The translations under genes and the position numbers were made by a program. From sequence record AP029160.1: 64,000 nucleotides of DNA, one strand, 5' to 3'. Below are positions 5,992 to 37,275 of the stretch, piece by piece. The notes under the pieces are model-generated. The model worked only from the letters and a program-made list of their open reading frames with translations, was not told where the DNA came from and made no database searches. Numbering within the stretch: the first letter of the stretch is position 1; every line of letters begins with the position of its first letter. This stretch comes from a plasmid.

Positions 5992-6030
5992 GGGGTTATT
6001 TGCAAGAATCCCCGAGATTGTATACCAAAG
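5992..6030. repeat. Tn3-family terminal inverted repeat (IRL) GGGGTTATTTGCAAGAATCCCCGAGATTGTATACCAAAG
   Basis: 39 bp starting with GGGG, ~90 bp outside the tnpA stop. An inverted partner (37/39 identical) lies at 36954..36992. Confidence 0.6.
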
Positions 6031-6119
6031 CTGACTTATTATTGAAAATAGAGGATATCTTTGTTTTTGACGAGTATAAAATCCAAGTACCTGCGTGAGA
6101 ATCATAACGATGATGATTC

Positions 6120-9100
6120 TCACAGTTTATTTTTTACATGCTTTGATATTTTGTCCAAGTTTAATTTTCCTTCTTTTTTAGTGAACTCGAAGCGACCAAA
6201 TAAATTGATGTGCTGCCAAGCTACAGGAGACATGGATTTTATTATATCTTCATTCCATTTTCCGTGTGCCATTAAATTTGAAAATATAGATTCATTATAA
6301 TAAATAATACAAAGCGTAATAAAACGAGCACAAGCATCCCAGACTTGCTGTTCTTCTTCTGTTTTAAATTTTAATTTACCAAAATTTGCATACCCAACCG
6401 CTCGCTTTAATTGATGATAGCTTTCAACTCTGTTTAAAGCTTTTTGTACACCTTGTCTGAGTTCTGACGAATCTAAATAGTCAAGCAAATAGATGCTTTT
6501 TAGAATACGATTATATTCCCATAAAGCATTTTTTGTTTTACTTTTATGAGTATGCGAGCTTATCTTTGCTGTTATTATGCTCTGTGTAGTTTTTTTTATG
6601 CCAAGAGAATCATAATTTTTTGAATATTTTCCCATTCTTCAATTATAATTCTTGTATTAAATCTCTTTTTTGGTCTTAAATTTAAATGACTATAATCGCT
6701 TATATTTTTAAAAGACCCTATGGAATCAGTAAAAACATCATAAAAATCTTTATATCGGGGAGCGAATTGGTACCCAAATGTATACAAAATTGCAAAATTT
6801 ACATCATTAGTTCCATGTGTATCTGTTGAAAAAACTTCAGGATGAACGTCGCTTTTATTGCTAGATATTATATCATAAACATGATGGCTTTCATGATCAT
6901 TTGCGCTAATTATTTTTGAATTAGTAGGAAGGATATTACCAACCATTGAATATGAAACAATACCTTTTTTTCGACCAAAATATTTAGGTGAATGTCTTGC
7001 ATTAATAGTTGATACTTTTACCTCAAACTTTTGACCATCTCCAGCAAAATGAGCTAGCGAATTAATATGATACTTAGAAAAAATTGGTGATTTATAAATT
7101 TCGTTTGTGATTTTATCACAAGCATCTTTCACTGTTTCTAAGCGAATAAAGTTTTTTAAAGATGAGTATAAATTATTGTAAGAAAGATCTGAAACATCAG
7201 AAATTTTTTTAATACCCATATTAGTAGCTATAGCAATAATACAAGCAGTTATTGATTTTATATCTGCTTCTTCCTTTGTAAATCGACATAAAATATGCTC
7301 GAAACAGTCCATAATATTTGCGTTTTTTATGGCAAAATATATAACATCAATAAGATCTATTTGCTCCAATGACTCAAATAAGTATTGGTTTACATCCTCA
7401 GATGATGAAGGAGTTTTTACATTCCATCTTGATTTTTTTAATGTTTTATTTTGTTCAAAATATATATTTTCACCTTTTTCAATTTTATTGTTTACCGTTA
7501 TTAATTTTTTTTCGTATATTTCTTTTAGTTCATTTAGATGCTTTTCTGGTTTTTTATTGAAATTCTTTAGACCTAATTCATGTATAAAATTATCTTTATT
7601 TTCCCATTCTTTATTTGTAACTAATTCACTTGCTAGGCTTTTATATTTTACACTATCCGAACAGTAAATAGAACCTGATTCTAAATTTTCACAAATAAGC
7701 ATATAGATCAAATATTCACATCGATCATAGCTGACTTTATTGTCATTAATTATATATTTTAAAAATTTTTTCGGTATAAAATTTTCCTTAAATTCAAATA
7801 TATTATTTTTATCTAAGTTCTTTTTTGATATGTGATTTTTTAATATATTCAACGCTTCTATCAATTTTGAGTTTTTAGATAAAAATTCAAAATCTATATT
7901 CATAATAATTGGTCTTAAATTTTTTTTAATTTTTTGATTTATTATTTCTATATATTCCCATTCAAATTCACTTTTATCAAAACTTGCTTTATTTTCAATA
8001 TAATCAGCAACAACTGCTAAAAGATTTTCCCTCAATAACGTAAAGGCTCTACCTTTTGTTTTTAAAAAAGTTTCGCTTTCAGGTATTTTTTTATCTAAAA
8101 ATATTTTTAATATTTTACCTGCTTTAGGTACGTATTCATTCCCTTCTATCTTGTATTCTAGTATCTTTTCATCTGCATAAAGCTTATATTCCGCTTCAAA
8201 TAAATTTAAATTATACTTTAAAGCATTAATCATGTTATCATTATATTTATGAAATCTATGAAATAAAAAACAAATTATATATAATCTTACAATTTTTATA
8301 TCTCGAATATTTAATCTATATACAGAGTAAAATTCAACTAAAGAAGCATAATATTTTATACTTTCATTTGAAATCATAAGTCTTGGAATTAAATTTTTTA
8401 TTTTTATATAAAATTTTCTTATTTTACTACCTCTTATTATTTCTTCTTTTATTTCACCATATTTGAAATCTTTTGGGCTATGTTTTAGTGATGTAATTTC
8501 ATATGTTTTATCTTGTTTTAGTTGTATTAATTTATTTAACTCATTTGAAAATCCAATATCTATATTTTCTTCAATAATATTTATCAATCTTGATTCTTCT
8601 GAAAGCAATATTTTGCTTATAAAATCTTGCATGTATGAATATCTTGGAATAATAATTTTATTTTCATCCAAGAAATTAAAAAGTTCTCGAAAAATGTATT
8701 TTTGTTTTGCACTTATTTTAACTAGATTTAGTGCCTTTTCCTCTAATATTTCTAAATCTTTTTTATCAAAGTATTTATACTTGAAAATATCTAATATTGT
8801 TTTTTTATTTTCAGTTGATGTTATTTTACTTACATCTTGTATTTTTTTTATACTTAAAATACTATTCTTAAAATGTTTCTCAACAATAAATTTAATATCT
8901 TCTTCAACTTCATTTAATTTAAAAGAAAAAAATCTATATTTAAATTTGAAATATCCCAATTGTAAAATAAAATTAATTTTTGAATTTAAAATTCTGAGTT
9001 TATTTAAAGCAATATTTTCCTTGTGTGATAAATCAAAATAGATTTCTCTTTCTTCATCTGAAAATAGTGGTCTTTCATAAATTAATTTAATTTCATCAGG

Positions 9101-9172
9101 TTTAAGAATAGTGAGTCGATTTGAATGGTGCTCACTTTCTTCTTTGTATTCATCATCAATTTCCAAAAGCAA
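6120..9172 (-). pseudogene. tnpA: Tn3-family transposase TnpA, split by a frameshift near 6596-6635
   Basis: An 858-aa ORF with the Tn3 TnpA N-terminus (TILKPDEIKLIYERPLFSDEEREIYF) plus a 171-aa ORF with the Tn3 C-terminus (YLLDYLDSSELRQGVQKALNRVESYHQLKRAVGYANFG...WQHINLFGRFEF). The two overlap in different frames. Confidence 0.8.
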
Positions 9173-9296
9173 ATTCCTTATTTATTTTCTTAAAAAGTGT
9201 ACTTTATGAGACATGCCCATTGACGTGTCTCAATAAATGTCTCAAAATACAGTTCTCATAAAGTCAAAGACATTTCGAGACATATTGGGGGCAAAA
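9173..9296. promoter_or_regulatory. Putative res site in the divergent tnpA-tnpR intergenic region
   Basis: Repeated TGTCTCA/TGAGACA half-sites, including the palindrome TGAGACATgcccattgacgTGTCTCA, between divergent tnpA and tnpR. Confidence 0.5.
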
Positions 9297-9851
9297 ATGA
9301 GCATGATTGGTTATGCAAGGGTAAGCTCCACAGGACAAAGTTTAGATATACAAATGGAAAAGCTAAAAAGTTGTCATAAAATTTTTAAGGAAAAAATAAG
9401 TGCTTCTTCTACAAAACGGGAAAAACTTGAAGCCTGCCTTGAATATCTTAGAGAAGGAGACACTCTCGTTGTTACTAAGATTGATAGACTTGCTCGTTCG
9501 ACATGGCATTTATGCCAAATTACGAATGAGTTAGTGCGAAAAAAGGTTAATCTCCAAGTTCTTGATCAAAATATTAATACAAATGACTCTTCTGGACGCT
9601 TGCTTTTTAATATGCTTGGTGCAATTGCTCAGTTTGAAACTGAGATTCGTTTGGAAAGGCAGATCGATGGAATCAATAGGGCAAAAAAAAATGGCGTGCA
9701 TTTTGGCAGACAAAAAAAATTAAATCCAAAAATAATTTTAGAACTTCAAAGTAAAAGAATTCAGATGATAAAAATTAAAGACTTAATGAAAGAATATGGA
9801 TTGTCAAAAGCTAGTATTTATCGATATCTTTCTATTGACTTAAATAATTAA
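9297..9851 (+). CDS. tnpR: Serine recombinase, resolvase TnpR
   Basis: MSMIGYARVSSTGQSLDIQ catalytic-Ser N-terminus and a C-terminal HTH (SKASIYRYLS). The ORF-track start at 9237 is probably too early. Confidence 0.8.
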   Translation: MSMIGYARVSSTGQSLDIQMEKLKSCHKIFKEKISASSTKREKLEACLEYLREGDTLVVTKIDRLARSTWHLCQITNELVRKKVNLQVLDQNINTNDSSGRLLFNMLGAIAQFETEIRLERQIDGINRAKKNGVHFGRQKKLNPKIILELQSKRIQMIKIKDLMKEYGLSKASIYRYLSIDLNN

Positions 9852-9943
9852 AGATTTAGGTTTTTCAATTTATTTATTAAAGATACTTTAGTTTTTTAAT
9901 TAAATTAAAGAAACATTAAAATTAACCTAAAGAGGAATAGCTT

Positions 9944-10235
9944 ATGCCTGAAATTAAATATAGAGAGACTACGCTGGAAGATTCCGATCAAACGGCATTA
10001 ATAATGAAAGAAAACTGGGGTGGTGAACCTCTAATAGTCAGGACTAGAAGTTATTTCCCTAGTAAATTAAACGGTATTATTGCTCAATCAGGTGAAAAAT
10101 GGATCGGATTTTTATTTTACGATATTCGAGGGGATGATTGTGAAATTATTGTCTTTGAAGTTTTCGAAAAGTTTAAGGGAATAGGAACAAAAATCTTAGA
10201 ACAACTTATAACAATTGCTCAAAATAAACTCTGCA
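9944..10235 (+). pseudogene. GNAT N-acetyltransferase, N-terminal part, interrupted by IS6
   Basis: IVFEVFEKFKGIGTKILEQLITIAQNKLC, then read-through into the IS6 inverted repeat (the 345-aa ORF in the track is this fusion). The C-terminal part is at 37080..37275 (-), past the 8-bp duplication ACTCTGCA. Confidence 0.65.
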
Positions 10236-11055
10236 GGTTCTGTTGCAAAAAATATATAAGTGAGAGTGGAGTAACTTTTTTTTGGAGTTGTTTGAGGGGA
10301 GTGGCGATGGATTTCAAGTGGAAGCATACTGATCGTATGATTATCATAATGGCAATCCGTTGGTATGTAGGCTACTCCCTAAGTTATAGGCAAGTAGAAG
10401 AACTTTTAGCAGAGCGTGGTATTTTTGTAGATCACACGACCATTCATCGTTGGATTGTGGAATACAGTCCAAAATTACTTAAGAAGTTTTATAAGCTTAG
10501 AAAGCGTATCTGTGGAAGTTGGCGAATGGATGAGACTTACATCAAAGTAAAAGGTGAATGGTGTTATCTCTATAGAGCCGTGGATAAGCATGGTCAAACG
10601 ATTGATATTTACCTTTCAAAACGAAGAGATACAACAAGTGCCAAACGTTTTTTCCAAAAATGCTTTCGTTCTTCTGGAATCCCAGAAAAGGTAAATATTG
10701 ATAAAAGTGGCTCTAATACGGCAGCATTAAAGGCTATCAACAAAGATCTTAAATCTGAAGATAAAGTTCTAATAAGACAAAATAAATATTTAAATAACCT
10801 TGTAGAGCAAGACCATCGATTTATAAAAAAGAAAGTAAAGCCTATGCTTGGTTTCTTCTCATTGAAATCGGCGAGAGCTACTTTAGCAGGTATTGAACTC
10901 CATCATATGCTCAGAAAAGGGCAATTCAAATTTAAAAGTCATTTGCCTATTTGGGAGCAATTTTGCTCCCTCGCTGGATAATTGCACCTACAGAGGACAT
11001 TCTTGAAAAGTAACAACCCAATGTTTCGTGGCTTCTAATTATTTGCAACAGAACC
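10236..11055 (+). mobile_element. IS6-family insertion sequence, copy A, variant 1
   Basis: 820 bp. 14-bp inverted repeats GGTTCTGTTGCAAA...TTTGCAACAGAACC. Transposase ~10307..10981 (MDFKWKHTDRMIIIMAIRWYVGYSLSYRQ..., IS26 Tnp-like DDE). Confidence 0.85.
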
Positions 11056-11237
11056 CTAGGGACACCCCTAATAGGGATGCCCTTTTTTTTGAGATCGGAA
11101 TATTACACAAAAACACACGATATATCATATTAATATTATTAAATAATTAAATTTATTTATACTTATTTTAAATTTTTATATTTAAATAAAATTTTATTCC
11201 GATAGGAAAATGTTCTTATAAAAAAGGAGACTCTCAT

Positions 11238-12005
11238 ATGTCTAAAAGGATAATCTTATTTACTTTTCTTTCTTTTATCGTTTTTAGCTGCTCAAAAGGT
11301 GAAGGTGGAAGCATTGATAAAAATTCGTCAGATGCAACGGCTAATAACGATCTTTGTAAAATTCATTCAACAGCAATAAATTCTAACGAAAAAATATCAT
11401 ATCAATACAATGCAATTAATTCACAATGGGAACTACTTCCAAGCTATCAAATTACACCTGATACAACACAAGTAAGTGGCACACCAATTCAATTAAGTCC
11501 AAACTCTCCAGAAATGATTATTAGTGGAAATGTTGGGCAAATTCCAAATGTCAACAATTTTATATCTTATACTTTAAGTAATAGTAATTTTGTTTATTTA
11601 ACTAAATTACCTTCAATACCAACTGATAAAAGTATCGTTCAAGTAAATACAAACTCTAATTACATAGCAACAATAGATTCAACATTATTTGGTGGTAATT
11701 TAGCTGACCTTAAAGGAAATGCTGGTAATTTATTTATCCATCATAGTGTAATAACTTCTCCACTCTATTTCATATATGATCAAGCTTCACAGTCTTGGAG
11801 CCTTGTAAATAGTGTTTTAAATTTAATGGCAGGAAGTATTGCTCAATTGAATGGGCAATTACCAAGTGGAAACTTTAGTGCAATTAATTTTAGTTTATCT
11901 GCATATAGCTTTGTAACACCAGTGTATTTACCTAAAAATCCAATTGATAAAATGAAAATTAATATAATTAATAATACGAATCAAAATGCGAATATTTGTT
12001 ACTAA
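11238..12005 (+). CDS. Asn/Ser-rich lipoprotein (lipobox VFSC), copy 1 of 3
   Basis: 255 aa. Signal peptide plus Cys lipobox. Identical copies at 41772..42539 (+) and 62232..62999 (-), each with the same 182-bp leader abutting an IS6 right end. Confidence 0.65.
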   Translation: MSKRIILFTFLSFIVFSCSKGEGGSIDKNSSDATANNDLCKIHSTAINSNEKISYQYNAINSQWELLPSYQITPDTTQVSGTPIQLSPNSPEMIISGNVGQIPNVNNFISYTLSNSNFVYLTKLPSIPTDKSIVQVNTNSNYIATIDSTLFGGNLADLKGNAGNLFIHHSVITSPLYFIYDQASQSWSLVNSVLNLMAGSIAQLNGQLPSGNFSAINFSLSAYSFVTPVYLPKNPIDKMKINIINNTNQNANICY

Positions 12006-12081
12006 ATTACAAATAAATTTTTGCAAATAATTAAGAGTTACGAATCAGAGGTGTGTTACTTTTCAATTAGGTTCCATTTAG
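12006..12081. repeat. Degenerate IS6-family right-end relic (inverted) between the lipoprotein stop and IS6 copy B
   Basis: TTGCAAATAATTAAGAGTTACGAATCAGAGGTGTGTTACTTTTCAATTAGG aligns with the reverse complement of the IS6 right end (TTGCAAATAATTAGAAGCCACGAAACATTGGGTTGTTACTTTTCAAGAATG) but lacks the terminal GGTTCTG. Also present beside copies 2 and 3. Confidence 0.5.
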
Positions 12082-12901
12082 GGTTCTGTTGCAAAAAATA
12101 TATAAGTGAGAGTGGAGTAACTTTTTTTTGGAGTTGTTTGAGGGGAGTGGCGATGGATTTCAAGTGGAAGCATACTGATCGTATGATTATCATAATGGCA
12201 ATCCGTTGGTATGTAGGCTACTCCCTAAGTTATAGGCAAGTAGAAGAACTTTTAGCAGAGCGTGGTATTTTTGTAGATCACACGACCATTCATCGTTGGA
12301 TTGTGGAATACAGTCCAAAATTACTTAAGAAGTTTTATAAGCTTAGAAAGCGTATTTGTGGAAGTTGGCGAATGGATGAGACTTACATCAAAGTAAAAGG
12401 TGAATGGTGTTATCTCTATAGAGCCGTGGATAAGCATGGTCAAACGATTGATATTTATCTATCAAAACGAAGAGATACAACGAATGCCAAACGTTTTTTC
12501 CAAAAATGCTTTCGTACTTCTGGAATCCCAGAAAAGGTAAATATTGATAAAAGTGGCTCTAATACGGCAGCATTAAAGGCTATCAACAAAGATCTTAAAT
12601 CTGAAGATAAGATCTTAATAAGACAAAATAAATATTTAAATAACCTTGTGGAACAAGACCATCGATTTATAAAAAAGAAAGTGAAGCCTATGCTTGGTTT
12701 CTTCTCATTGAAATCGGCGAGAGCTACTTTAGCAGGTATTGAACTCCATCATATGCTCAGAAAAGGGCAATTCAAATTTAAAAGTCATTTGCCTATTTGG
12801 GAGCAATTTTGCTCCCTCGCTGGATAATTGCACCTACAGAGGACATTCTTGAAAAGTAACAACCCAATGTTTCGTGGCTTCTAATTATTTGCAACAGAAC
12901 C
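12082..12901 (+). mobile_element. IS6-family insertion sequence, copy B, variant 2
   Basis: 820 bp, same inverted repeats. Transposase ends at 12827 (variant with TNAKRFFQKCFRTS, KILIRQ). Confidence 0.85.
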
Positions 12902-12902
12902 C

Positions 12903-13700
12903 ACTTATAAACCTAAAGATAAGGCCAAAGTAGAAGTCGGGGTACAAGTAGCACAACGCTGGATCCTTGCTAAACTCAGAAAACAATTATTTTACTCAAT
13001 TCAAGACATTAATGAAGCCATCTCTCCATTACTTGAAGCTTTAAATCATAAAAAGATGAAACACTTAAATGTTTCTAGATATGAATTGTATGAGCAATAT
13101 GAAAAAAACCAACTCAAACCCCTACCTAAAGAACACTTCGAATTATATGAGTGGCGAAAAGCAAAAGTAAATATAGATTACCATGTCCAATTTGAGTGTA
13201 ATTATTACAGCGTTCCTTGTCATTATGTACATAAAAATGTTGAAATACGAATAACAACTAATACAATTGAAATATATTTATCTAATAAAATGATTGCCGT
13301 TCATAAAAGACTTTTTTTAGTTGGCAAATATTCAACATACAAAGAGCACATGCCTCAGTCTCATCAGAAACATGTTGAGTGGACTCCAGAAAGAATGTTG
13401 AAATGGGCCTCCAATATAGGAGTTTCAACAAAAACATGTTTTGAAATTATGATTTCCAGAACTCAACACCCAGAACAAGGATTTCGTTCTTGTCTAGGTA
13501 TACTTCGCCTTGGCCAACAATATTCTAATCTAAGATTAGAAAACGCTTGTTTAAGAGCCCTAAATACCGACCAAGTGAGTTTCAAATCAGTGAAAAATAT
13601 CTTAAAAAACAACTTAGATAAAATAATAATAACTGAAACAAAAAAGAATGTCATAAATATTGAACACGAAAATATACGTGGTTCTGATTATTATAATTAA
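12903..13700 (+). pseudogene. istA: IS21-family istA, 3' portion, 5'-truncated by IS6 copy B
   Basis: The frame is open from the IS6 end (YKPKDKAKVEVGVQVAQRWILAKLRKQLFYSIQDINEAISPLLEALNHKK...), the typical IstA C-terminal region. Confidence 0.7.
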
Positions 13701-13726
13701 TGTAATTAAAAAAAAGGATAAATAGC

Positions 13727-14484
13727 ATGTTGAATGCACAGATTATAGAGCAATTAAAAAAATTAAATTTAAATATGTTTATGCAAGAATTAGAAGAGCA
13801 AGAAAAAAATAATGGCTATAAAGTTCTTTTTCTGATAGATTATCACTTCTGCTACAAAGAGAAATCCTTGAAAGAGAAAATAAAAATATTAAGCGAAAAA
13901 TAACAAATGCAAAATTAAAGCAAAAAGCAAGTCTAGAAAATATTAAAACCAGCCTGGAACGTGGATTAGATAAAACAGCTTTACAATCACTAAGTACCTG
14001 TGAATGGTTAAAAAGAAAACAGAATATCATAATTACAGGAGCAACAGGTGTAGGAAAAAGTTTTTTAGCTTCAGCATTAGCAGAAAAAGCATGCAGATCT
14101 GGATTTCAAGCTAGATATTTTCGCTATCAAAGTCTTTTATCTGAGCTTACGTTTTCAGTTGCTGATGGTTCATTTAAAAACTACTTACTAAAACTAGAAA
14201 AATTAAATTTAATCGTAATTGATGATTGGGCTTTGCATTCTATAACAGAAATAGAACAAAAATATTTATTCGAACTGATTGAAGCTAGAAGTGAAAATTC
14301 TTCTACAATTTTTGTCAGCCAAACACCAATAGCAAGTTGGCATTCTCTCATGCCTAATTCTACCATTGCAGACGCTATTCTGGATAGAATTGTTCACACT
14401 GCGATAAGAATTGAACTCAAGGGGGAATCCATGCGGAAAAAATCAGATCATAAAATTGACGAGGAGACTGCGATTATGAAATAG
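13727..14484 (+). pseudogene. istB: IS21-family istB helper ATPase with a frameshift near 13830
   Basis: N-terminal MLNAQIIEQLKKLNLNMFMQELEEQ; then in another frame GATGVGKSFLASALAEKAC (Walker A)...LIVIDDWALH...SQTPIASWHSLMPNSTIADAILDRIVH. Confidence 0.65.
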
Positions 14485-15022
14485 AATCTTTGAGCAGAAT
14501 CATAGCCTCTACGGATGCCGCTTTCAATCGGAAACCCGTACCGAATTCGATTGGAATTCACCACCGCTTTCAGCGGAATATGCAATAATAACTAAAAATA
14601 ATAAACTATACCTAGGAGAAAGTAAATATCATCATGATAGATACTATTATCAGGATGATGTTTTAAATAAAAGCTATTACATAAATGATCATTCATATTT
14701 TAAATCAGAGAATTTTTTTATTGATAAAGAAAATGAAAAAATAACACTAAAATATAAATATACCTCACCTGTTTGGATTGAAGAAAATAAAGTAAATGAT
14801 GTAATAATTCATAATATAGAAAGAAATAAAAAAATGGCTTTTTTTATAAATAACTTATTTAATTAATTTTTAGTTTAATCTTATTTAAATACGCATTCTC
14901 AACTCTTAAATGGCATATATAGTTCATTGAAATTTCGAAATAAATAATTTAAATTTAAAAATATCTAGAAAAAGAATGCACATTACTAATATTTTAAATA
15001 TTCAAGTTTTACAATTAAGAAT

Positions 15023-17371: not shown

Positions 17372-17420
17372 TGAAAACTCTTAAATTGTATTATTCAATA
17401 CTATAGCAGCATTCTCATAT

Positions 17421-27264: not shown

Positions 27265-27741
27265 ATGAAAATAAGCACTCTAACATTGATAGAAGAATAT
27301 ACACCAACAGTTGAGGATACTAAAAAAGCTGAAATTGTAATTAAAGATATTTCTAATTTCAGTGAAAAGAAAAAGATTAAAAATCTTGAGCTTGCGTTAA
27401 ACTTCCAAGGTAATATAAAGAATTTACAACTTCCATTAAGTATTATGCCATTTTTAATGGATATATTAAATGAAGTTGCTCATGGAAATTCAGTTACTAT
27501 TGTGCCATTTAATAAGGAATTTACAACGCAAGAAGCAGCGGATATTTTAAACGTATCACGCCCATTTATTATTAAAATTCTTGAGTCAGGACAAATACCA
27601 TTTCATAAAGTTGGTGCACACAGAAGAATCAAAGCAAAAGATATTATGGCATTCAAGAAAAAAATGAATAAAAAAAGTAAAGATGCACTTGAAAAATTGG
27701 CAAAAATTTCTCAAGAAGATAAACTTGGTTATGAAGACTAA
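27265..27741 (+). CDS. HTH DNA-binding protein (MerR/excisionase-type), putative antitoxin
   Basis: FTTQEAADILNVSRPFIIKILESGQIPFHKVGAHRRI. Immediately upstream of the PIN gene with a 2-nt gap. Confidence 0.55.
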   Translation: MKISTLTLIEEYTPTVEDTKKAEIVIKDISNFSEKKKIKNLELALNFQGNIKNLQLPLSIMPFLMDILNEVAHGNSVTIVPFNKEFTTQEAADILNVSRPFIIKILESGQIPFHKVGAHRRIKAKDIMAFKKKMNKKSKDALEKLAKISQEDKLGYED

Positions 27742-27743
27742 AA

Positions 27744-28322
27744 ATGAACAGTAATAATTTTGTTGTTATTTATGACGCCTGTATTTTATATCCAGCAAAT
27801 TTAAGAGATTTTTTACTCCATTTGGCTTTAACAAATCAATTTAAAGCTAAATGGAGTGATGATATACATGAAGAATGGATTAATAATTTACTAAAGAATA
27901 GACCTGATTTGAAAATAGAAAGGTTAAATAAGACAAGAGAGCTGATGGAATTGGCTGTGCCTGATGCTAATATTCCAAAATTAAGGTACCAAGAAATATT
28001 AACATCAATTTCTTTACCAGATCCTGACGATAAGCATGTATTAGCAGCAGCAATTGTATGTCAAGCTCAATATATTGTAACTTTTAATTTGAAAGATTTT
28101 CCTAAGAAAATATTAAGTAAATATGAAATTGAAGCAATTCACCCTGATGACTTTATTTGTCATTTAATAAATCTTTCTCCTGAAAATGTACTTGATTCTA
28201 TTTCTAATCAATTAAATAGCTTGAAAAACCCTCCAATAAAAATGAATGATTTGATAAAAATCCATAAAAAAAGCGGTCTTCACAAGAGTATGCAACAAAT
28301 AGAAACCATGCTTGATATTTAA
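27744..28322 (+). CDS. PIN-domain protein, putative toxin
   Basis: 192 aa. VVIYDACILYPANLRDFL with the N-terminal acidic residue of PIN; further D/E residues at the conserved spacing. Confidence 0.6.
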   Translation: MNSNNFVVIYDACILYPANLRDFLLHLALTNQFKAKWSDDIHEEWINNLLKNRPDLKIERLNKTRELMELAVPDANIPKLRYQEILTSISLPDPDDKHVLAAAIVCQAQYIVTFNLKDFPKKILSKYEIEAIHPDDFICHLINLSPENVLDSISNQLNSLKNPPIKMNDLIKIHKKSGLHKSMQQIETMLDI

Positions 28323-28379
28323 ATTTGAAATGATTTACTAAATTTTTTCTTCTGATGATATAAAAATCATTCATCAGCG

Positions 28380-28553
28380 ATTTTTCATTCGCATTTAATC
28401 TGAGCCCATGTTTATGATTGCGATCCCAAGTGCATTGCGAATGAGCCCAATCGCATTTAAAGTGAGTTTGGAGAGTTTCATATTCGCATTTAATTTGATC
28501 CCAATTTGTCTTTGATTGCGATCCAGACCCTCCGATGTTCGTGAGCCGTAACA
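28380..28553. repeat. Right inverted end of the Tn552-like element
   Basis: Three ATTCGCATTTAA boxes, two GATTGCGATCC boxes, and a terminal ...CCGTAACA. Confidence 0.6.
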
Positions 28554-29026
28554 GTTAACGGTTATTATACAAATATATTTTTACCGGATGGGAAAGGAGA
28601 GGAAATTAAATTATTAGAAGAGAAATGTAGAAAAGAGGTGAGCAAATATAATAAAAAATATTTATATGCCCAACCAATTTTTTATTACTTTGGTTTAATT
28701 CCATCTAGTTATTCATTATTTGGAACAAATATCAAGAATACTATTTCATTATCAAATGGATACTTGCCTAAAAAAATAGATTATGATTATATGAATAGTT
28801 TTATAATAGTACCAAAACGTTCTATTAAATCTCTTAATTAGAATATTTCAAAATCAAATTGGAATAAAGAAAAACTTAGGCTTTTAAGTTTAATTAACTT
28901 AAATAGAGTTTAAAATTAATTTACCACAAAAATCTGAAAAAGATGTATTAGAGGATTTAAAAATAAAGCTCAAAAATAAAAAAGAGTTAATAGAAACTGC
29001 GAATCTCATAAAGAATAGAAATTATT

Positions 29027-30235
29027 CTATTTTAAGTTCAACGTTACAACAAATTTTGTATTTAAAGAATTTTCATCATAAATAATTGTACCTTTATGAG
29101 ATTCTATAATACCCTTTGCAACACATAATCCAAGCCCTTTTGGAAAATTAAAAGCTTCCTTTGCTGATATAAATGGTTCCATAATTCTTTTAATAAATTC
29201 TTTATCTTCAATTTTTCTACCGCTATCAATAAAATTAATAACTATATGAGTATCTTTTTCTATACATTCTATATCTATATATTTATTTCCATCATTAATT
29301 TTGCATAAACTTTCATAAGAATTTAAAATTATATTATAAAAAGCGATAGATAAATTAACTAATTTACATTTTATTAATAAATTTTCATTAATATTTAATT
29401 TAATATGGATATTTTCCCTTTCTATAGACTTTTGAAGAAAAAATAATGATGTTTTAATTACATCTAAAATTTTATTTTCAGTTATAATTTCATCTTCATC
29501 TGAATTAGCAAATTTCCGAAGAGAAGAAACAATTTTATGTATTCTTTTTAAACTTAATTCTAAAGCATTAAAGTCGGATTGAAGATTTAGTTGTTTGTAA
29601 TTTTTTAAATTTTCTTTTATTTTTTTATCTATCAGATATATTTTTCCATTGATTATAGCAAGAGGATTATTTATTTCGTGAGCAATACCAGATGAAAGAT
29701 TTAAAATTGAACTAAGTCTTTCTTTTTTTATTAACTCTTTATGAACTTTTTCTAGTTCAATATTTTTTTTGTATATTTCAAAGTAATTAATAATTTGTTT
29801 TGATAAATTTTTTAATATATCAATTTGAAACTTATTAAGTTTTTTTTCTTTCCTATCTATAACGCACAATGTGCCAATATTATACCCATTTTTTGATTTT
29901 AAGGGCTGTCCTGCATAAAATCTTATATTTGGATTTCCTTGAACTAAAGGATCATCTTTAAATCTACCATCACTTATTGCATCTTCTACTATAAATATAT
30001 CGTCGTGTCCAATTGCGTGTGTACAGAATGAAATATTCCTAGGTGTTTCATCTGCTTCTAAACCTATTTTTGACTTAAACCACTGTCTGTTCTCGTCTAC
30101 AAGAGAAATTAAAGCTATCGGTGTTTCACAAACTAAAGAAGCGATTTTAGTTATTTCATCAAGGTCTATATCTTTTGGTGTATCTAACATTAAATAACTT
30201 CTAAGTTCCTCAATCCTTTTAGATTCTAAATCCAT
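29027..30235 (-). CDS. GAF-domain sensor histidine kinase (cytoplasmic)
   Basis: GAF region, then HisKA (SSGIAHEINNPLAIINGK with the phospho-accepting His), then HATPase_c. No response regulator adjacent. Confidence 0.75.
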   Translation of the reverse strand: MDLESKRIEELRSYLMLDTPKDIDLDEITKIASLVCETPIALISLVDENRQWFKSKIGLEADETPRNISFCTHAIGHDDIFIVEDAISDGRFKDDPLVQGNPNIRFYAGQPLKSKNGYNIGTLCVIDRKEKKLNKFQIDILKNLSKQIINYFEIYKKNIELEKVHKELIKKERLSSILNLSSGIAHEINNPLAIINGKIYLIDKKIKENLKNYKQLNLQSDFNALELSLKRIHKIVSSLRKFANSDEDEIITENKILDVIKTSLFFLQKSIERENIHIKLNINENLLIKCKLVNLSIAFYNIILNSYESLCKINDGNKYIDIECIEKDTHIVINFIDSGRKIEDKEFIKRIMEPFISAKEAFNFPKGLGLCVAKGIIESHKGTIIYDENSLNTKFVVTLNLK

Positions 30236-30494
30236 TTAATAACCTTATAGTAAAAATATTTATTTTGCTCTTAGCCAAGATATAGTAACAGAGTCTTTTT
30301 TAGTAAAGCCTGCATTTTTTGCACATGTTTAATATTTTGTTTTTATAGGTCTTTACTTTTATTCGCTTGCTTTTGAAATTTGAATTTCTTTTTTAGGCTA
30401 CAAGGCTAGCTCAATAGGACTTTTTTTAAAGAGTTTCAATTTGATTTAAAATATGATAAGATAGAATAAAATATTTAATTTAAATTTAAAATCT

Positions 30495-31343
30495 ATGAAT
30501 TTTGATTACTATAGGAGAAATATGGATTTATTAAAAATACAAAAATTATACAAAATTACTTTTGTATTTTTTATATTTTTTATACTTAAAAAAGTAGCAT
30601 TTGCCGATGATCTGTGCCCAGCTCCTTGGAAAATTGGAATTTATGATAACCCACCTTTTCAAACATTAATAAATGAAAAGGAAAGTGGCCTAGATATAGA
30701 TATTATTACGGAAGTAGTAAAAAGACTGAATTGTAAAGTTTTATTAATTAAAATTCCATGGAGCAGACAATTTTATGAAGCCAAAACAGGAAAACTCGAT
30801 ATCATAATGGGAGCGGGAAAAAGAAAAGATAGAGAAGAATATTTATATTATTTAACACCTTATAAAAATCTTCCTTCAGTTATTGCATTCATGAATAGTT
30901 CTAAAACTCCTAAATCATTTAATTTAAGTAATTTAAAAAATATGGATATTACTATTGGAGCTTTAATAGGCGCAGTTTATAGTGACGAATATGAAAATTT
31001 AATAAAAGATCCGGAATTTTCCTCAAAAATTGAACTTTCTTCTAAAACTGAATTAATTATTAATAAATTAAGGCTAGGAAGAATAGAGGGTGCCTTTTTC
31101 ACTGGGATTTTAGAGGTAAAAAATCTGATGCCTAAAGAGTACAAAAACAATGAATTAATTATTTATCCAATATCTTCAGTTGACTATGGATATTTTGCAT
31201 ACAGCAAAAAAACTTTTGACCTTATAAAGGCAAAAAAGATAGATAAAGTCATTCAAGACATGAACTCTGATGGAACTATAAAAAAACTAATGAAGAAATA
31301 TTTCAATCAAAATGAAATTAAAAGCATATCTGTATCTTCTTAA
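30495..31343 (+). CDS. Family-3 periplasmic solute-binding protein
   Basis: 282 aa with a signal peptide and IPWSRQFYEA (compare YPWSR in the paralogues). Confidence 0.55.
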   Translation: MNFDYYRRNMDLLKIQKLYKITFVFFIFFILKKVAFADDLCPAPWKIGIYDNPPFQTLINEKESGLDIDIITEVVKRLNCKVLLIKIPWSRQFYEAKTGKLDIIMGAGKRKDREEYLYYLTPYKNLPSVIAFMNSSKTPKSFNLSNLKNMDITIGALIGAVYSDEYENLIKDPEFSSKIELSSKTELIINKLRLGRIEGAFFTGILEVKNLMPKEYKNNELIIYPISSVDYGYFAYSKKTFDLIKAKKIDKVIQDMNSDGTIKKLMKKYFNQNEIKSISVSS

Positions 31344-31576
31344 AAATTGGCACTGAATATCTTTTAAAGGAAATTTAACTCTTCTATAGTCAAAAAATAA
31401 AACACCAATGAATCAATTAAAATCATTTAATTAACCTGATTTTGAAAAATTCAAAAAATCGCCTAAATAATAATCAACTATAAACTAATCTCTTGTTTGC
31501 AAATTTAAAACATCATCCAAATTGGAGAAAATTACAAAAGCTATATTTGAAGAACAAATTTACAAAGAAATATATA

Positions 31577-31645
31577 AAAAACCCCTCACAAGAGGGGTTG
31601 TCTCGAGGAGTGAGACAGGATCTTGGAAATCCCGCTTCCAGTTTA
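31577..31645 (+). terminator. Two consecutive hairpins followed by a T-run
   Basis: ACCCCTCACAAGAGGGGTT, then GTCTCGAGGAGTGAGAC, then ...TTTTTTTT. Confidence 0.4.
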
Positions 31646-31955
31646 GCAAATTTTTTTTGAAAAAAAAGAGATTTTCAAATTAAATCGAAATTATATTTAA
31701 AATTAAACGAAATTAATTACAACAGATTTGAAATACCTTTTGTTATTAATCAGAAAGACATCAATTCTTTTCTTATCAGCAGAAAACTGTCTTAATAAAA
31801 ACTTTGGTACATAATGATGCTTACGTTCTTGAGCCATAGGAATCTCCAGTTAGTATTTCCTTGCTGAATTTTTCTTGTGATGTTATTTTATTTTTAGTTA
31901 ATGCCTCGATTTACAATCTGTGTTTTTATAAAAATGTTTTTGTAATAAATATAAA

Positions 31956-32564
31956 TTAATTCAAACAATGCCCATTTTGTAATTTTTTTATCTTTTGATT
32001 AAATTCATCGAAACTTATTTTGTAGGCAATTTCATCTTTTTGTGGCCATACTTTCATTACATATGTAATTATATTTTGGTGGCGTATAATTTGTTCTTTC
32101 CCCACTATCCAACTTTCAACATTCATTTCTTTTATTTTTGGATACATTAACCTATAGTAATCTTCCATTGCAGCTTGATTATCTGCGTTTTCAGCAAAAA
32201 TTAACAGCGCAACAATCTGATTGCATTTTAAACAAGGCAAAATTTTACTTGGAATTTTATGATAATTAGGCATTATATTTTGTTGGAAATGATGAGAATC
32301 TGTTTCTTTCATTTTTGATTGAGTTGATTTTTCAATTTCAGCAATCATTGATTTTGTTATTGGTTCAAGTATTTCTAAGCGTCTTTTTGTCGTAGGATCT
32401 TGTGGATCTCCGACTACTTCACTTGAGAAATGACACATTCCTTTTTTTTCGCTTACAACAATTCTTCCCAGATCTCCTAAATTTTCATGTCGAATGATAT
32501 AGGCAACTGAATTTTGAATGATTTCTTTTCGACAAGAAATTCCTTTTGGTAATGTGTAATTCAT
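31956..32564 (-). CDS. Hypothetical protein with four Cys (C11, C44, CxxC at 113-116); second gene of a two-gene operon
   Basis: 202 aa. 13 bp downstream of 32578..33705. Confidence 0.3.
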   Translation of the reverse strand: MNYTLPKGISCRKEIIQNSVAYIIRHENLGDLGRIVVSEKKGMCHFSSEVVGDPQDPTTKRRLEILEPITKSMIAEIEKSTQSKMKETDSHHFQQNIMPNYHKIPSKILPCLKCNQIVALLIFAENADNQAAMEDYYRLMYPKIKEMNVESWIVGKEQIIRHQNIITYVMKVWPQKDEIAYKISFDEFNQKIKKLQNGHCLN

Positions 32565-32577
32565 TTAATTATCCTTT

Positions 32578-33705
32578 TTAATCTTCATTGACTTCTTGAA
32601 TATTTGTGGGGAGATTTAACTCCCATTGTTTTCCTTTTTTTATCAGGGTTCCCTGGCATACGATTGGAACTTTTTTGTCATGAGCTACCACAAATTTAGA
32701 ATCATCATCATCAGCAGCACGAATAATTATCGAAGAAAGTTTACCGTCAATTTGAGTTTTAACTGTAACTTTACCTTCAGATTGATTTGCATCTCGTTGT
32801 AATTTTACAATCAATCCAAATATTTTTTCGTCTGGACGAGGTTCTTGATTCGTAAAACGTTTGGCAGCTTCTTCAAGAATACCGCTCCAACGTCCATAAA
32901 AATGTTGCCTGTAGATGGGTTTATTTGAGGGCCTAGAGTTGGCCCATGTGATACTTAATTCTACTTTCTCGGATAATTTAGTTAAATTAGATAGAGCTTG
33001 GCAGATATTCGCATTTACCCCATGTTCTATCCTTGATGAAAATACATCAAAATCCTGACTTGTTTCAGAAATGGTAAGTGCTTTATGTGTTGCTTCTAGA
33101 GCTTCACATAATTTTAATGTTACCTTTCTTTCAAAAGGCTCATCTTCTAAGGAAATCTCATCTCTATTCTTTGAAAATGAAGGATTTACGGGTGAAAGGA
33201 GTGTAAAAATAAAACTTCCTCTTTCCGTGTGGCCTAGTTTGAGTTTTGAAATATAGTTTGCAACTTGGTCTGGCTTCTTCCCTAAATAAGCCGCTCGCGG
33301 CTCTAAAGCAGAGCATGCAGAGGCGTTTGTAAGCTCGTAAATACTCTTTATGGCATCGACTCCTTGCGTTGCAGGAACCCCCTCTGTTGCGCTATTTTCT
33401 GTAATGCGCACTCGAATGACATCGACTTCCGATTTTTTTAATGCTGAGATAATCTCAATTTGAGAACGTTTTTCTTGTTTTTCCAATACACTGACAAGAT
33501 CTCTTATCCTAAATGCATAATCTCCAAATTCTGTTTTAAGTGGACAGAGGACTTCATATGTTTCATTATCTACTTCTTTTTCCCAGATATTTGCTTTGCC
33601 TGGTATGGATTTAGCTGGTCGCCATCCATTAGAGGAAAGATATGAAGAAATATTGTTAGGAGTGATTTGAGAAAAAGTTTCAGAATCTTTTATATCAACC
33701 TTCAT
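32578..33705 (-). CDS. Hypothetical protein, no recognisable domain; first gene of the two-gene operon
   Basis: 375 aa. Locally higher GC than the surrounding DNA. Directly abuts the truncated IS6 copy D. Confidence 0.3.
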   Translation of the reverse strand: MKVDIKDSETFSQITPNNISSYLSSNGWRPAKSIPGKANIWEKEVDNETYEVLCPLKTEFGDYAFRIRDLVSVLEKQEKRSQIEIISALKKSEVDVIRVRITENSATEGVPATQGVDAIKSIYELTNASACSALEPRAAYLGKKPDQVANYISKLKLGHTERGSFIFTLLSPVNPSFSKNRDEISLEDEPFERKVTLKLCEALEATHKALTISETSQDFDVFSSRIEHGVNANICQALSNLTKLSEKVELSITWANSRPSNKPIYRQHFYGRWSGILEEAAKRFTNQEPRPDEKIFGLIVKLQRDANQSEGKVTVKTQIDGKLSSIIIRAADDDDSKFVVAHDKKVPIVCQGTLIKKGKQWELNLPTNIQEVNED

Positions 33706-33804
33706 ATTTTCTCATCCTCATGTAGTTTTTTAAAAAGCAGATCAAGTTGTTCTTTATTAAATATATTTGGTTTTGGACCGTCTAATAGGGACACCCCATA
33801 GAGA

Positions 33805-34139
33805 TAACACCATTCACCTTTTACTTTGATGTAAGTCTCATCCATTCGCCAACTTCCACAGATACGCTTTCTAAGCTTATAAAACTTCTTAAGTAATTTT
33901 GGACTGTATTCCACACTCCAACGATGAATGGTCGTGTGATCTACAAAAATACCACGCTCTGCTAAAAGTTCTTCTACTTGCCTGTAACTTAGGGAGTAGC
34001 TTACATACCAACGTATTGCCATTATTATAATCATACGATCAGATCAGAATGCTTCCACTTGAAATCCATCGCCACTCCCTCAAACAACTCAAAAAGAAAG
34101 TTACTATACTCTCACTTCTATATTTTTTGCAACAGAACC
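33805..34139 (-). mobile_element. IS6-family insertion sequence, copy D, 3'-truncated (left ~335 bp only), variant 3
   Basis: Left inverted repeat at 34139. Homology ends after GEWCYLY; at the breakpoint the junction reads GGGGTGTCCCTATTAG, similar to the GGGACACCCCTAATAGGG motif flanking IS6 right ends in the lipoprotein units. Confidence 0.7.
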
Positions 34140-34140
34140 A

Positions 34141-34225
34141 AAATTTGGGCGCAAATTAATTGAAATTATCGTTTTGCTTTGGCGCACGCTATTTGAAATC
34201 GGGCGCACAATAATTGAATTTATAC
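34141..34225. repeat. Second copy of the GC-box intergenic element (three boxes)
   Basis: AAAATTTGGGCGCAAATTAATTGAAATTATCGTTTTGCTTTGGCGCACGCTATTTGAAATCGGGCGCACAATAATTGAAT, near-identical to 2612..2715 minus a 31-bp internal duplication. Confidence 0.5.
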
Positions 34226-34302
34226 AAAAATACAATTTTTTTAATTAATTTATAAATGAATTTTCTTATTTTTATTATTTATTTAGAAAGCTTAATTTTT
34301 AT

Positions 34303-35172
34303 CTATTTTGAATTTTTTGTACCTGAATCAATATTAGCGGGTTCAATTTTAAAATCCCTTGTTAGAGGAACAAGAGAATCGGGACCAAACCATTTATTAA
34401 AAATTTCTTTTGCTCTTCCTGATTTCTCCATATCTTCTAAAGTATCATTAATGAGTTTTAATAAATCATCTGAATTTTTCCTTACACCAATTCCATAAGG
34501 CTCCGAAGAAATATCAAAGTTTGTTATTTGAAAATCAGATTTACTTTTCATATTTGAAAGAATCCCAGCTAGAACTGATTCATCTGTTGTAATTGCAAAA
34601 ATTTTCTCAAGGTAAAGTGCGTGCGCTGCTTGGGAATAATCTTCTAATCCTAGAACAGTTGCTTTAGGAAGATATTTTTTGGTATTTGTTTCAGCTGTTG
34701 AACCTTTTGAAGTAATAATTATTTTACCATCTAAATCTTTTAATTCATTGACAGTACCTTTATGAACTAAAAATTTCTGTTTTGAAACAAAATATTGATG
34801 ACTAAAGTCAATTTCTTCTTTTCTTTTACTAGTTATTGTCATTGTACATATTAAAATATCTACTTCTTTTTTTATTAACAATGGGATTCTTGTAGATGAA
34901 GTAACTGCTTTAAAAACAGGCTTGACATTTAGCCTATTTGCAATCTCATTAGCAAAATCTATATCATACCCTTCTAATATTCTTGTTTTTTTATCGATTT
35001 TCTTTAAATATCCAAATGGAATTACGTTGTCTTTTATACCAAAAATAATCTCATTTTTCTTTTTAATTTCTGGAATAATATCTGCATAAGATAATTGATT
35101 ATAAGATATGAATTGGCATATAAAAGCAAAGAATATAATAAATTTTATAATAAAATAACTTAATTTAGTCAT
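34303..35172 (-). CDS. Family-3 periplasmic solute-binding protein, co-transcribed with the MCP
   Basis: 289 aa with a signal peptide; start overlaps the MCP stop by 4 nt. Confidence 0.55.
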   Translation of the reverse strand: MTKLSYFIIKFIIFFAFICQFISYNQLSYADIIPEIKKKNEIIFGIKDNVIPFGYLKKIDKKTRILEGYDIDFANEIANRLNVKPVFKAVTSSTRIPLLIKKEVDILICTMTITSKRKEEIDFSHQYFVSKQKFLVHKGTVNELKDLDGKIIITSKGSTAETNTKKYLPKATVLGLEDYSQAAHALYLEKIFAITTDESVLAGILSNMKSKSDFQITNFDISSEPYGIGVRKNSDDLLKLINDTLEDMEKSGRAKEIFNKWFGPDSLVPLTRDFKIEPANIDSGTKNSK

Positions 35173-36659
35173 AAATCTCCTTTAATTAATATTTCAATTT
35201 CTTTTGCTGTTTTGTCTAATTTAGTGCTTTCATCTACTAATTTAATTGCAGAATTTGAGTTAGTTTCAGCCGCCCCCTTACAGTATTGAGTAGTTTTATC
35301 AATATCTCCCATTGATGAAGCAATTTGTCTTACACCAACCTCTTGCTCTTGCGTAGCCTCAGATATATGTGAAATAGTATTTGTCATAGTTGAAATATCT
35401 TCTGCAATTTTTTGGAAAGCATTTTGAGCTTCTGTCGTTACTAATTTTCCTTCATCAATTCTTTCTTTTGTTATTCCAAGAATCTTATTTACTTGTTCCT
35501 GACTTTTTGTAATTAATTCTTGAATTTCATTTGCTGATTTACCACTTATTTTTGCCAATGCCCCAACTTCTTCTGCAACAACAGCAAATCCTTTACCGTG
35601 TTCTCCTGCCCTTGCAGATTCTATTGAAGCGTTTAAGGATAATAACTCAGTCTTTGCAACAATCTCATTAATTACAGTTGTTTTAGAGTTTATTTGTGAA
35701 ATAATTTCAGCAATTTCTTGTAATTTATTATTTGATTCTTGGATATTTTGCATCGCAAATACAAGTTTCCGCATTATTGCCTGGCCTTCATTTGCTTTTG
35801 AAGTCGCACTTTCTGCAATTTTTCTAGATTCATTTGAGTTTTCAGACGTTCTATTTACCATACTTGTAATCTGATTGACCGCAGCCCCCGTTTTTAAAAC
35901 AGCTTCTCCTTGTTCAATAACTGTTTGAGACAATGAATTTGCATCTTTTTTTAAAAGCATAGCAATATCATTTGTTGAAATACTTTGTTTCTTTAAATTT
36001 TCGATCCCATGAATAATAGAACTTGTTGAGATATTTACAATTCTAAAGATTATAATTGAAATAATTAAACTTAGTGTAAATATTATAATCATTCCAATAA
36101 TGGTTATTTTAGTAAAGTAAGCCCCTTTTCTAGTAGAATTAAGTGCTCCTTTATAATTAATATCAGCAATTTCAAAAAAACTCGATTCTGCTTTTTTCAT
36201 AAGAGGTAATGCTTTTGTTTTAATTAAATTAAGAGCTCCTTTTTCATCATTTTTTTCTGTGTTTTTAAAAATTTCATTTACCAAAGAGCGAATTTCATCC
36301 CATATTGGTAAAAATTTTTGCAATTCAGCACGCTCTTCTTTCTCTGTGATTTCTGTTTCATATATGGTAATTAAGGCATTTATTGACTTTATTGTGTCAT
36401 TTATTACAGCTAATTGATCTTGATATTCATCTTTATCTGAAATGGTTAAAAGTTCAAATTGAAGCGACTTTAATAATATAATTCTTGCAACAATGCGTTG
36501 AGCAGTATCAACGCTTGGTAACCAGCTTAGACCTGTTTCATCAGCAAATTTATTTGTTGTGATAATCATTGAAATTGTATAAATTGAAGTAATAAATATT
36601 AAACTAAGTAAGATAAATATTGAAGTATAAAGTTTAAATGGTAAGCTTTTCTTTTTCAT
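35169..36659 (-). CDS. Methyl-accepting chemotaxis protein
   Basis: Two transmembrane segments flanking a periplasmic 4-helix-bundle-like region, then the MCP signalling domain (LLSLNASIESARAGEHGKGFAVVAEEVGALA). Confidence 0.8.
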   Translation of the reverse strand: MKKKSLPFKLYTSIFILLSLIFITSIYTISMIITTNKFADETGLSWLPSVDTAQRIVARIILLKSLQFELLTISDKDEYQDQLAVINDTIKSINALITIYETEITEKEERAELQKFLPIWDEIRSLVNEIFKNTEKNDEKGALNLIKTKALPLMKKAESSFFEIADINYKGALNSTRKGAYFTKITIIGMIIIFTLSLIISIIIFRIVNISTSSIIHGIENLKKQSISTNDIAMLLKKDANSLSQTVIEQGEAVLKTGAAVNQITSMVNRTSENSNESRKIAESATSKANEGQAIMRKLVFAMQNIQESNNKLQEIAEIISQINSKTTVINEIVAKTELLSLNASIESARAGEHGKGFAVVAEEVGALAKISGKSANEIQELITKSQEQVNKILGITKERIDEGKLVTTEAQNAFQKIAEDISTMTNTISHISEATQEQEVGVRQIASSMGDIDKTTQYCKGAAETNSNSAIKLVDESTKLDKTAKEIEILIKGDL

Positions 36660-36953
36660 TTTATTTCTCTTTATAAAAATTGTTAGTATTTATATTTTAT
36701 ATTAATTAAGTGTTAAATCATGTCAAATTTTTTCTATTCTCTATTAGTGATAATAAAATTACAAAATAAATGATGGTAACAGAATATTAAAACATTATTG
36801 GAATTTAAAAAACTCTAAAAATGTATGCCTAACTATTTTGCAATTCGAAGAAAACGATGGTTTATTTGATGCTTTTTTTATTTCAAATACTACGATTAGA
36901 TAGTATTTGCTAAACCGCCTTTTTTCCGTTCCAGCCGCTCGGTACCCCTACTA

Positions 36954-36992
36954 GGGGTTATTTGCAAGAATCCCCGAGATTATATACCAAGA
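36954..36992. repeat. Tn3-family inverted repeat (IRR, 37/39 identical to 5992..6030), moved here by the IS6-mediated inversion
   Basis: GGGGTTATTTGCAAGAATCCCCGAGATTATATACCAAGA, about 90 bp from the GNAT 3' end. Confidence 0.55.
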
Positions 36993-37079
36993 TGAACTTA
37001 TTCTTTAATATGAAGAATATCTTTTCTTTTTGAGTGGATCTAATAACAATCAGATTTAAGAATATCTAATGTAAGCCCC

Positions 37080-37275
37080 TTAAAGTATCAACTCTAAATC
37101 AATTTCATCCCTAATAGGAATGCCATAATCTCCTATTTCTGGGCATGGCTTTATTTTTCTGGCAATTTCCATTGAGTTAATATGTATACAGCAAATATGA
37201 AAACCTCTTCTTTGATAGAATCTTAATGCATCAAGATTATCATTATGCGTCATAAGATAGAGCCTCTTGCAGAGT
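37080..37275 (-). pseudogene. GNAT acetyltransferase, C-terminal part (continues 9944..10235)
   Basis: The reverse complement reads ACTCTGCA|agaggctc... giving LCKRLYLMTHNDNLDALRFYQRRGFHICC..., the GNAT C-terminal motif. The 8-bp ACTCTGCA is identical to the 8 bp preceding IS6 copy A at 10228..10235. Confidence 0.65.

Follow-up and report, generated by a model that had tools for sequence, protein, structure and literature searches.

We analysed a 64,000-nucleotide stretch of sequence record AP029160.1 (hereafter the window, with positions counted from its first letter), in which a Tn3-family transposon with a GNAT acetyltransferase gene lies in two pieces about 27 kb apart, each ending at a copy of the same IS6-family insertion sequence (IS). 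The larger piece begins at a 38-bp GGGG-type terminal inverted repeat (IRL, 5992..6029, + strand, outer end at 5992). It continues through a transposase gene (tnpA, 6120..9172, - strand), a putative res region and a resolvase gene (tnpR, 9297..9851, + strand), and breaks off within the GNAT gene (5' part, 9944..10235, + strand) at the first base of IS-A (10236..11055, + strand). The remainder of the GNAT gene (37080..37275, - strand, including the stop codon at 37080..37082) directly adjoins IS-E (37276..38095, - strand), and beyond it lies the partner terminal repeat (IRR, 36954..36991, + strand, outer end at 36954). Both halves of the GNAT gene were located where an initial annotation of the window had placed them.

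Both terminal repeats begin GGGGTTATTTGCAAGAATCCCCGAGATT... on the + strand (at 5992 and 36954), the left one as first annotated. IRR has the same direction as IRL within the window owing to the inversion, and the two become inverted once the flipped segment is turned back. The position previously given for the partner repeat also holds, but the 39-mers at 5992..6030 and 36954..36992 are identical at 36 of 39 positions without gaps, not at 37. The first 25 bp of the terminal repeat occur exactly twice in the window and in none of 100 shuffles, and the subterminal likeness of IRL to the IRR side reaches to approximately 6070 (~80 bp, 85%, three gaps). An exact scan for the terminal repeat across one genome per species gave no match. 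The IRR end (...AACCCC) borders on at least six different flanking sequences in other contigs, so IRR is a real mobile end. The reconstructed element measures 4558 bp, in line with the annotated size of about 4.6 kb, and its layout is IRL - tnpA (leftward) - putative res - tnpR - GNAT - IRR.

The tnpA gene is a pseudogene that consists of two overlapping minus-strand open reading frames (ORFs), 6596..9172 (858 aa) and 6120..6635 (171 aa). These divide the Pfam DDE_Tnp_Tn3 profile exactly at position 244/245 (E values of 1.7e-59 and 9e-40), and DUF4158 is also matched. The frameshift, which had been recognized in the initial annotation, is a one-base deletion just past the ATG at ~6610 (codon 855/856), and a DNA alignment with an intact relative of 78% identity (L015) has a single 1-nt gap in tnpA. 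The repaired product, of 1017 aa, is collinear and ungapped with full-length relatives across this site and matches NCBIfam transpos_Tn3 with 600.5 bits (cutoff 500) over the whole profile (positions 1-954). Programmed frameshifting was considered and ruled out, since there is no zero-frame slippery heptamer and the difference from the intact relative is a plain one-base gap.

The product of the first tnpA ORF matches P0121 at 100% identity, and P0121 carries the name 'Tn3 family transposase [Pigmentibacter ruber]'. Only two database contigs carry this tnpA through the frameshift site; both come from P. ruber runs and both have the one-base deletion. The TnpA is distant: the best named full-length relative (Bacillus mycoides) is 43% identical, and the match to the solved Tn4430 TnpA is confined to the C-terminal 600 aa. 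A protein-pattern scan for TnpA over one genome per species found no relative, and a blastn comparison of the transposon's left part with plasmids returned only distant Bacillus Tn3-family genes (at most 67% identity over 28% of the query). On the basis of the Pfam, NCBIfam and structure matches, the element is assigned to the Tn3 family.

The tnpA and tnpR genes diverge from a spacer of 124 bp (9173..9296) that contains TGTCTCA/TGAGACA motifs at 9207-9213, 9226-9232, 9238-9244, 9268-9272 and 9277-9282, and is the putative res region by position and motif. The tnpR gene encodes a 184-aa serine resolvase with the Pfam domains Resolvase and HTH_7, and its product aligns over its whole length with the resolvase structures of Tn3 and gamma-delta (E about 1e-27). 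Both the repeat-containing spacer and the resolvase agree with what had been annotated.

The 5' part of the GNAT gene comprises codons 1-97 plus one base. When 9944..10235 is joined to the reverse complement of 37080..37267, with one copy of the 8-mer at the junction removed, an uninterrupted ORF of 159 aa results. It is free of stops, as had been claimed, and its product is identical to database protein P0001 (100% over the full 159 aa). This product matches Acetyltransf_1 (47.2 bits, cutoff 20.7) and Acetyltransf_7 (31 bits, cutoff 27). Only general GNAT families match, as no NCBIfam equivalog cutoff was reached and no close solved structure was found. A role as the toxin of a toxin-antitoxin pair was considered and rejected, because the interval from tnpR to IRR contains no partner gene and the product matches no specific family. 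The 5' half of the gene also continues in frame across the left end of IS-A and into the transposase ORF (9944..10981, +), and the resulting 345-aa fusion ORF is probably accidental.

IS-A and IS-E have opposite orientations and are identical, with 0 mismatches in 820 bp, while most other copies have 9-10 mismatches from IS-A. The element has 14-bp terminal repeats (GGTTCTGTTGCAAA; 14/14 match) and a single gene, encoding a transposase with matches to Pfam DDE_Tnp_IS240 (E 3.4e-45) and NCBIfam transpos_IS6 (256 bits, cutoff 125). Short terminal repeats with GG tips and cTGTt...caaa motifs are described for the IS6 family (PMC7986276). The Pfam and NCBIfam matches, a length of 820 bp, within the family range of about 790-880 bp, terminal repeats of 14 bp and the 8-bp duplication described below place the IS in this family as judged from its sequence features. 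Among IS6-family proteins of the plasmid collection, none exceeds 58.6% identity to its transposase, and the best match comes from a Legionella israelensis plasmid; the IS is therefore taken to be a new member of the family. An exact look-up of the transposase with three possible start codons returned no database record. Twelve copies or remnants of the IS are present in the window, in both orientations. None of the nine that are complete and non-truncated has a direct 8-bp duplication on its own two flanks.

Identical 8-mers adjoin the ends of IS-A and IS-E, as first noted. One copy of this target duplication, ACTCTGCA (10228..10235, + strand), abuts the left end of IS-A and lies outside the inverted segment; the other, ACTCTGCA on the minus strand (37268..37275), abuts the right end of IS-E and lies inside it. 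There is no other occurrence of ACTCTGCA in the 64 kb. Between IS-A and IS-E, the inverted segment (11056..37267) spans about 26.2 kb and contains other IS copies, a TniA/TniB/resolvase module, an IS200/IS605 element, genes for a histidine kinase, solute-binding proteins and an MCP, and the right end of the transposon.

A second footprint of the same kind was observed at IS-J (57549..58368, + strand) and IS-K (59983..60802, - strand), where the right flank of the former and the left flank of the latter are both CTCCTAAT, as inverted 8-mers. Joining the reverse complement of 60803..61400 to the sequence from 58377 onward restores a 583-aa Mu/TniA-like transposase ORF, and the flipped segment is about 1.6 kb (window 57549..60810). 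Each of the two 8-mers was thus checked by a restored, uninterrupted ORF, and ACTCTGCA also by an ancestral contig (see below). Among 81 pairs of left and right flanks, ~0.004 matched pairs are expected by chance versus two observed, and no pair other than A/E and J/K was found among the IS copies of the window. BLAST extensions of 6-13 bp beyond some IS ends were also considered as shared flanks, and a check of the flanks shows that these are chance similarities. The recurrence of the footprint at IS-J/IS-K indicates that the IS inverts DNA repeatedly.

The arrangement before the inversion was found in an independent contig. L004 (run DRR420811) matches the reconstruction, that is, 5962..10235 followed by the reverse complement 37267..34150, at 100% over all 7392 bp and with no gap. 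Its gene order is tnpA - tnpR - intact GNAT - IRR - MCP - solute-binding protein, and it is one of the contigs that encode P0001. Judged from its sequence, L004 is the IS-free, un-inverted ancestral arrangement, from a different strain, and it shows the orientation of the inverted segment relative to the ancestor. This independent contig, which has the arrangement predicted for the ancestor at 100% identity, proves the structural reading, and with it the annotated interruption by an IS6-family element and the inversion of roughly 26-27 kb between inverted copies. What the data show directly is the structure, the junctions, the ancestral state and the fact that the two IS copies are identical. 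The one-base deletion in tnpA is also present in this IS-free contig, so tnpA was defective before the IS event, and the Tn3-family element was already non-autonomous at that time.

Both junctions of the rearranged state are found in contigs of a second run, DRR523861, which consists of short reads of P. ruber GTC16762 (PMC11385108). L014 matches window 5962..10262 at 100%, from the transposon's left end through the 5' part of GNAT into the left end of the IS, and, like L004, it begins 30 bp outside IRL. L012 matches 37305..34150 at 100%, from the right end of the IS into the 3' part of GNAT, IRR and the MCP gene. These matches, with that of the first tnpA ORF to P0121, assign the window to P. 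ruber and give it the structure of strain GTC16762 or of a near-identical strain. In another strain (L011), the MCP block lies on a 3.59-Mb chromosome, so the locus is probably chromosomal. The same sequence blocks are ordered differently in L011 and in the window.

How the inversion arose can be considered in light of what is described for IS26 and its relatives. For elements of the IS6 family, the described products are cointegrates and not simple insertions (PMC7986276). In the trans pathway, the expected products are oppositely oriented IS copies with matched inverted 8-mers, one outside at the left end of one copy and the other inside at the right end of the other (PMC4471558, PMC7986276). 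The window has precisely this geometry: identical inverted IS copies, inverted 8-mers, one outside at a left end and one inside at a right end. We therefore infer, with moderate confidence, that the inversion was produced by a single intramolecular replicative transposition in trans of the IS26-like IS, that is, in one transposition step rather than by insertion and recombination. A resident IS ~26 kb away on the same replicon, with the Z segment (now 11056 onward) at its right end and the Y segment (38096 onward) at its left end, would have attacked ACTCTGCA inside the GNAT gene. The same single event would have copied the IS, giving the identical IS-A and IS-E, duplicated the 8-bp target in inverted orientation, and inverted all DNA between the donor IS and the target. 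Its outcome would be the 5' part of GNAT followed by ACTCTGCA at the left end of IS-A, and ACTCTGCA followed by the 3' part of GNAT and IRR at the right end of IS-E, on the other strand. Where IS26 copies of opposite orientation carry matched inverted 8-mers, a one-step route of this kind is the standard explanation (PMC4471558, PMC7986276), and it needs fewer events since IS6-family elements are described as moving via cointegrates. The window also favors it, as nine complete IS copies are without a direct repeat and the footprint recurs at IS-J/IS-K. The two inversion footprints and the lack of direct duplications around any single copy suggest that this IS may transpose replicatively, with cointegrate formation.

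The initial annotation had instead proposed an insertion followed by homologous recombination. In this two-step route, a simple insertion of the IS in GNAT, with a direct 8-bp duplication, arises via a resolved cointegrate with a plasmid or sister chromosome. Recombination with a pre-existing inverted copy ~26 kb away, either RecA-dependent or through a transposase-dependent conservative reaction, then flips the segment. Such a history predicts the final structure exactly, and the 12 IS copies or remnants in both orientations would offer plentiful recombination partners. The extensive strain-to-strain reshuffling of the same blocks (L011) is also in its favor, and He et al. grant that other authors ascribe missing duplications to homologous recombination (PMC4471558). 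However, it requires at least three events (cointegrate, resolution and inversion) where one suffices, and it begins with a simple insertion, which is not what IS6-family elements are described as giving. Moreover, 0 of 9 complete, non-truncated IS copies have a direct 8-bp duplication on their own flanks, and the simple-insertion intermediate was not found in any contig. We regard this route as the less likely of the two; the product annotated earlier fits, while sequence cannot tell the annotated route from one-step transposition, which needs fewer events.

It could also be argued that the 27-kb segment is misoriented in the assembly, or present as mixed isomers, between identical inverted 820-bp repeats, and that the real state is a simple GNAT::IS insertion. 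Identical inverted repeats are a classic source of flip-flop isomers, and the short-read contigs end ~30 bp inside the IS and give no orientation. If the window is the published GTC16762 assembly, however, its nanopore reads (216x, N50 of 13 kb) easily span 820 bp (PMC11385108), and we consider an artefact very improbable. That the window does originate from this assembly is probable, given that L012 and L014 match the window at 100%. Several further points weigh against the single transposition step that we favor. The end products of the one-step and two-step routes are identical, which is why sequence cannot separate them. The presumed donor has no target duplication of its own from which its history could be traced (the right flank of IS-A is CTAGGGAC and the left flank of IS-E is CATTAGCA). 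The pairing of flanks across each 820-bp IS rests on the long-read assembly, given where the short-read contigs end, and the activity of the IS is predicted from its sequence.

The rearrangement resembles the trans inversions described for IS26 (He et al. 2015, mBio, PMC4471558; Varani et al. 2021, PMC7986276) in several respects. Both involve an 820-bp IS6-family element with 14-bp GG-tipped repeats and an 8-bp duplication, and in both, two opposite copies bracket an inverted segment with inverted matched 8-mers, one per copy. A gene or mobile element is likewise split into inverted halves tens of kb apart. In contrast to IS26, the P. ruber IS has a transposase no more than 58.6% identical to IS6-family proteins in the plasmid collection, and it resides in Pigmentibacter ruber (Silvanigrellaceae), at a locus that is probably chromosomal rather than on an enterobacterial resistance plasmid. 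No resistance genes are involved, and transposition of the P. ruber IS is predicted.

The interrupted element is similarly comparable to Tn3 and gamma-delta/Tn1000. The order IRL - tnpA (leftward) - (putative) res - tnpR - passenger - IRR is shared, as are ~38-bp GGGG repeats, a ~1000-aa transposase with DUF4158 and DDE_Tn3, and a ~185-aa serine resolvase. Unlike Tn3, the P. ruber element has a 159-aa GNAT passenger in place of blaTEM, its TnpA is distant and its tnpA is frameshifted, and there is no 5-bp duplication at this site. It had been annotated as 'near-complete'; the lack of a 5-bp target duplication and the inactivation of tnpA by a one-base deletion qualify that description.

A 1445-bp tnpA-less unit with the structure IR-res-tnpR-GNAT-IR was observed in metagenome contigs (L001-L003, 9162..10606; L009, 31..1475). 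It is 99.8-99.9% identical to the window from 9187, the edge of the putative res region, to IRR. The left repeat of the unit differs from IRL of the window at 4 of 38 positions, which suggests that the unit is not a plain deletion product but arose by exchange with a related transposon at res. Non-autonomous Tn3-family derivatives are tnpA-less elements bounded by Tn3-type repeats. The 1445-bp unit is similar to these, as it lacks tnpA and lies between Tn3-type repeats, and it is not a miniature repeat-only element because the resolvase and passenger genes are kept. In L001-L003, its neighbors include genes for a TrwC relaxase and a UvrD-type helicase. L001, which reaches furthest right, also encodes TrbI-like and lytic transglycosylase proteins and, with these and TrwC, has the appearance of a conjugative plasmid. 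Copies of res-tnpR-GNAT-IRR are 99.8-100% identical in at least six flanking contexts, including conjugative-plasmid-like contigs with TrwC and type IV secretion genes, and are found within the 4.56-kb element as well as in the 1445-bp unit. One could propose that res-tnpR-GNAT-IRR is a currently mobile non-autonomous cassette, spreading either on transposase supplied in trans by an unsampled relative or through partial bypass of the frameshift at an A6 run 10 nt upstream of the deletion; we consider this rather unlikely.

Neither the window nor the other contigs contain a 5-bp target duplication of the Tn3-family element (AATTT on the left versus TAGTA on the right), and short-read contigs, which may be chimeric at repeats, affect this flank check. 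IRL abuts a 5'-truncated TniA-like (Mu-type) transposase gene, without its first ~190 codons, which is followed by a TniB-like AAA_22 ATPase gene (4367..5985, -). A second GGGG-type end, GGGGTACCGAGCGGCTGGAACGGAAAAAAGG (36918..36948, -), lies 5 bp from IRR. Given the missing 5-bp duplication, the truncated TniA-like gene at IRL and the second GGGG-type end at IRR, either the flanks have been rearranged or the two ends do not come from one simple insertion. The missing duplication bears on the history of this copy and not on the Tn3-family assignment, and the element is located in a nest of mobile DNA with rearranged flanks.

The second GGGG-type end beside IRR reads GGGGTACCGAGCGGCTGG..., and homology with L011 starts exactly there. 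Based on its GGGG start and this homology breakpoint, the GGGGTACCGAGCGG... sequence may be a second Tn3-type end. Since the L011 chromosome homology begins at exactly this end, another Tn3-type element may have the MCP and solute-binding genes as its cargo. Comparison of GGGGTACCGAGCGG... with plasmids gave chance matches only, and a partner repeat for this end was not found in the window. The GGGGTACCGAGCGG... sequence may resemble the Tn4430 repeat.

Every feature of the locus fits known IS6 and Tn3 behavior. The rearrangement is of a well-known kind and involves no new mechanism, the elements are unnamed and distant from characterized members, and understanding of either transposon family is unchanged. 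With this locus, intramolecular transposition of the IS26 type would be documented in a host in which few studies have addressed it: P. ruber is a human pathogen that was described recently, belongs to the Silvanigrellaceae and is far removed from the Enterobacteriaceae. The states before and after the event are both present in public reads of two strains. With 12 copies or remnants, two inversion footprints and a block order that differs in L011, the IS appears to be a main driver of genome rearrangement in P. ruber, and such IS-driven rearrangement matters for assembling and comparing clinical isolates. The locus also adds an unnamed Tn3-family element with a GNAT passenger, plus its tnpA-less derivative.

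Several other mobile elements and gene pairs were observed in the window. A 2666-bp IS-Z-IS unit is duplicated at 100% identity (10236..12901 and 40770..43435), and a third copy (62155..64000, -), 99.35% identical, is cut off where the window ends. In structure the unit resembles a pseudo-compound transposon bounded by IS6 elements, and its Z segment encodes a 255-aa protein with a weak StcE beta-sandwich match. The left end of IS-E cuts the decayed 3' end of a different Tn3-family tnpA (38096..38638, +), which is interrupted by stops and frameshifts and shares 29% identity with the main tnpA. Within the inverted segment, an IS200/IS605-type element (19005..20893) has tnpB (454 aa, Cas12f-like TNB domain, -) beside a Y1 tnpA (158 aa, +). 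A complete Tn552/Tn5053-like module of resolvase, TniA-like and TniB-like genes (24280..27147, -) is paralogous to the genes beside IRL (proteins 29-34% identical). It is adjoined by genes for an HTH_17 protein and then a PIN_3 domain protein (27154..28322, +), possibly a toxin-antitoxin pair. Near the start of the window, a gene for DarT (a single-stranded DNA thymidine ADP-ribosyltransferase) precedes one for a macro-domain protein (592..2271, +), and the two resemble a toxin-antitoxin or defence pair of the DarT/DarG type. The window also has an intact gene for a group II intron reverse transcriptase of 507 aa (50643..52166, in the region 50540..52490). A second copy of this gene is split in two inverted pieces (55181..56632 and 61545..62039), both of which match the intact one at 100%. 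The left end of IS-I bounds one of the pieces, and five bases (ATGGC) are missing between the two.

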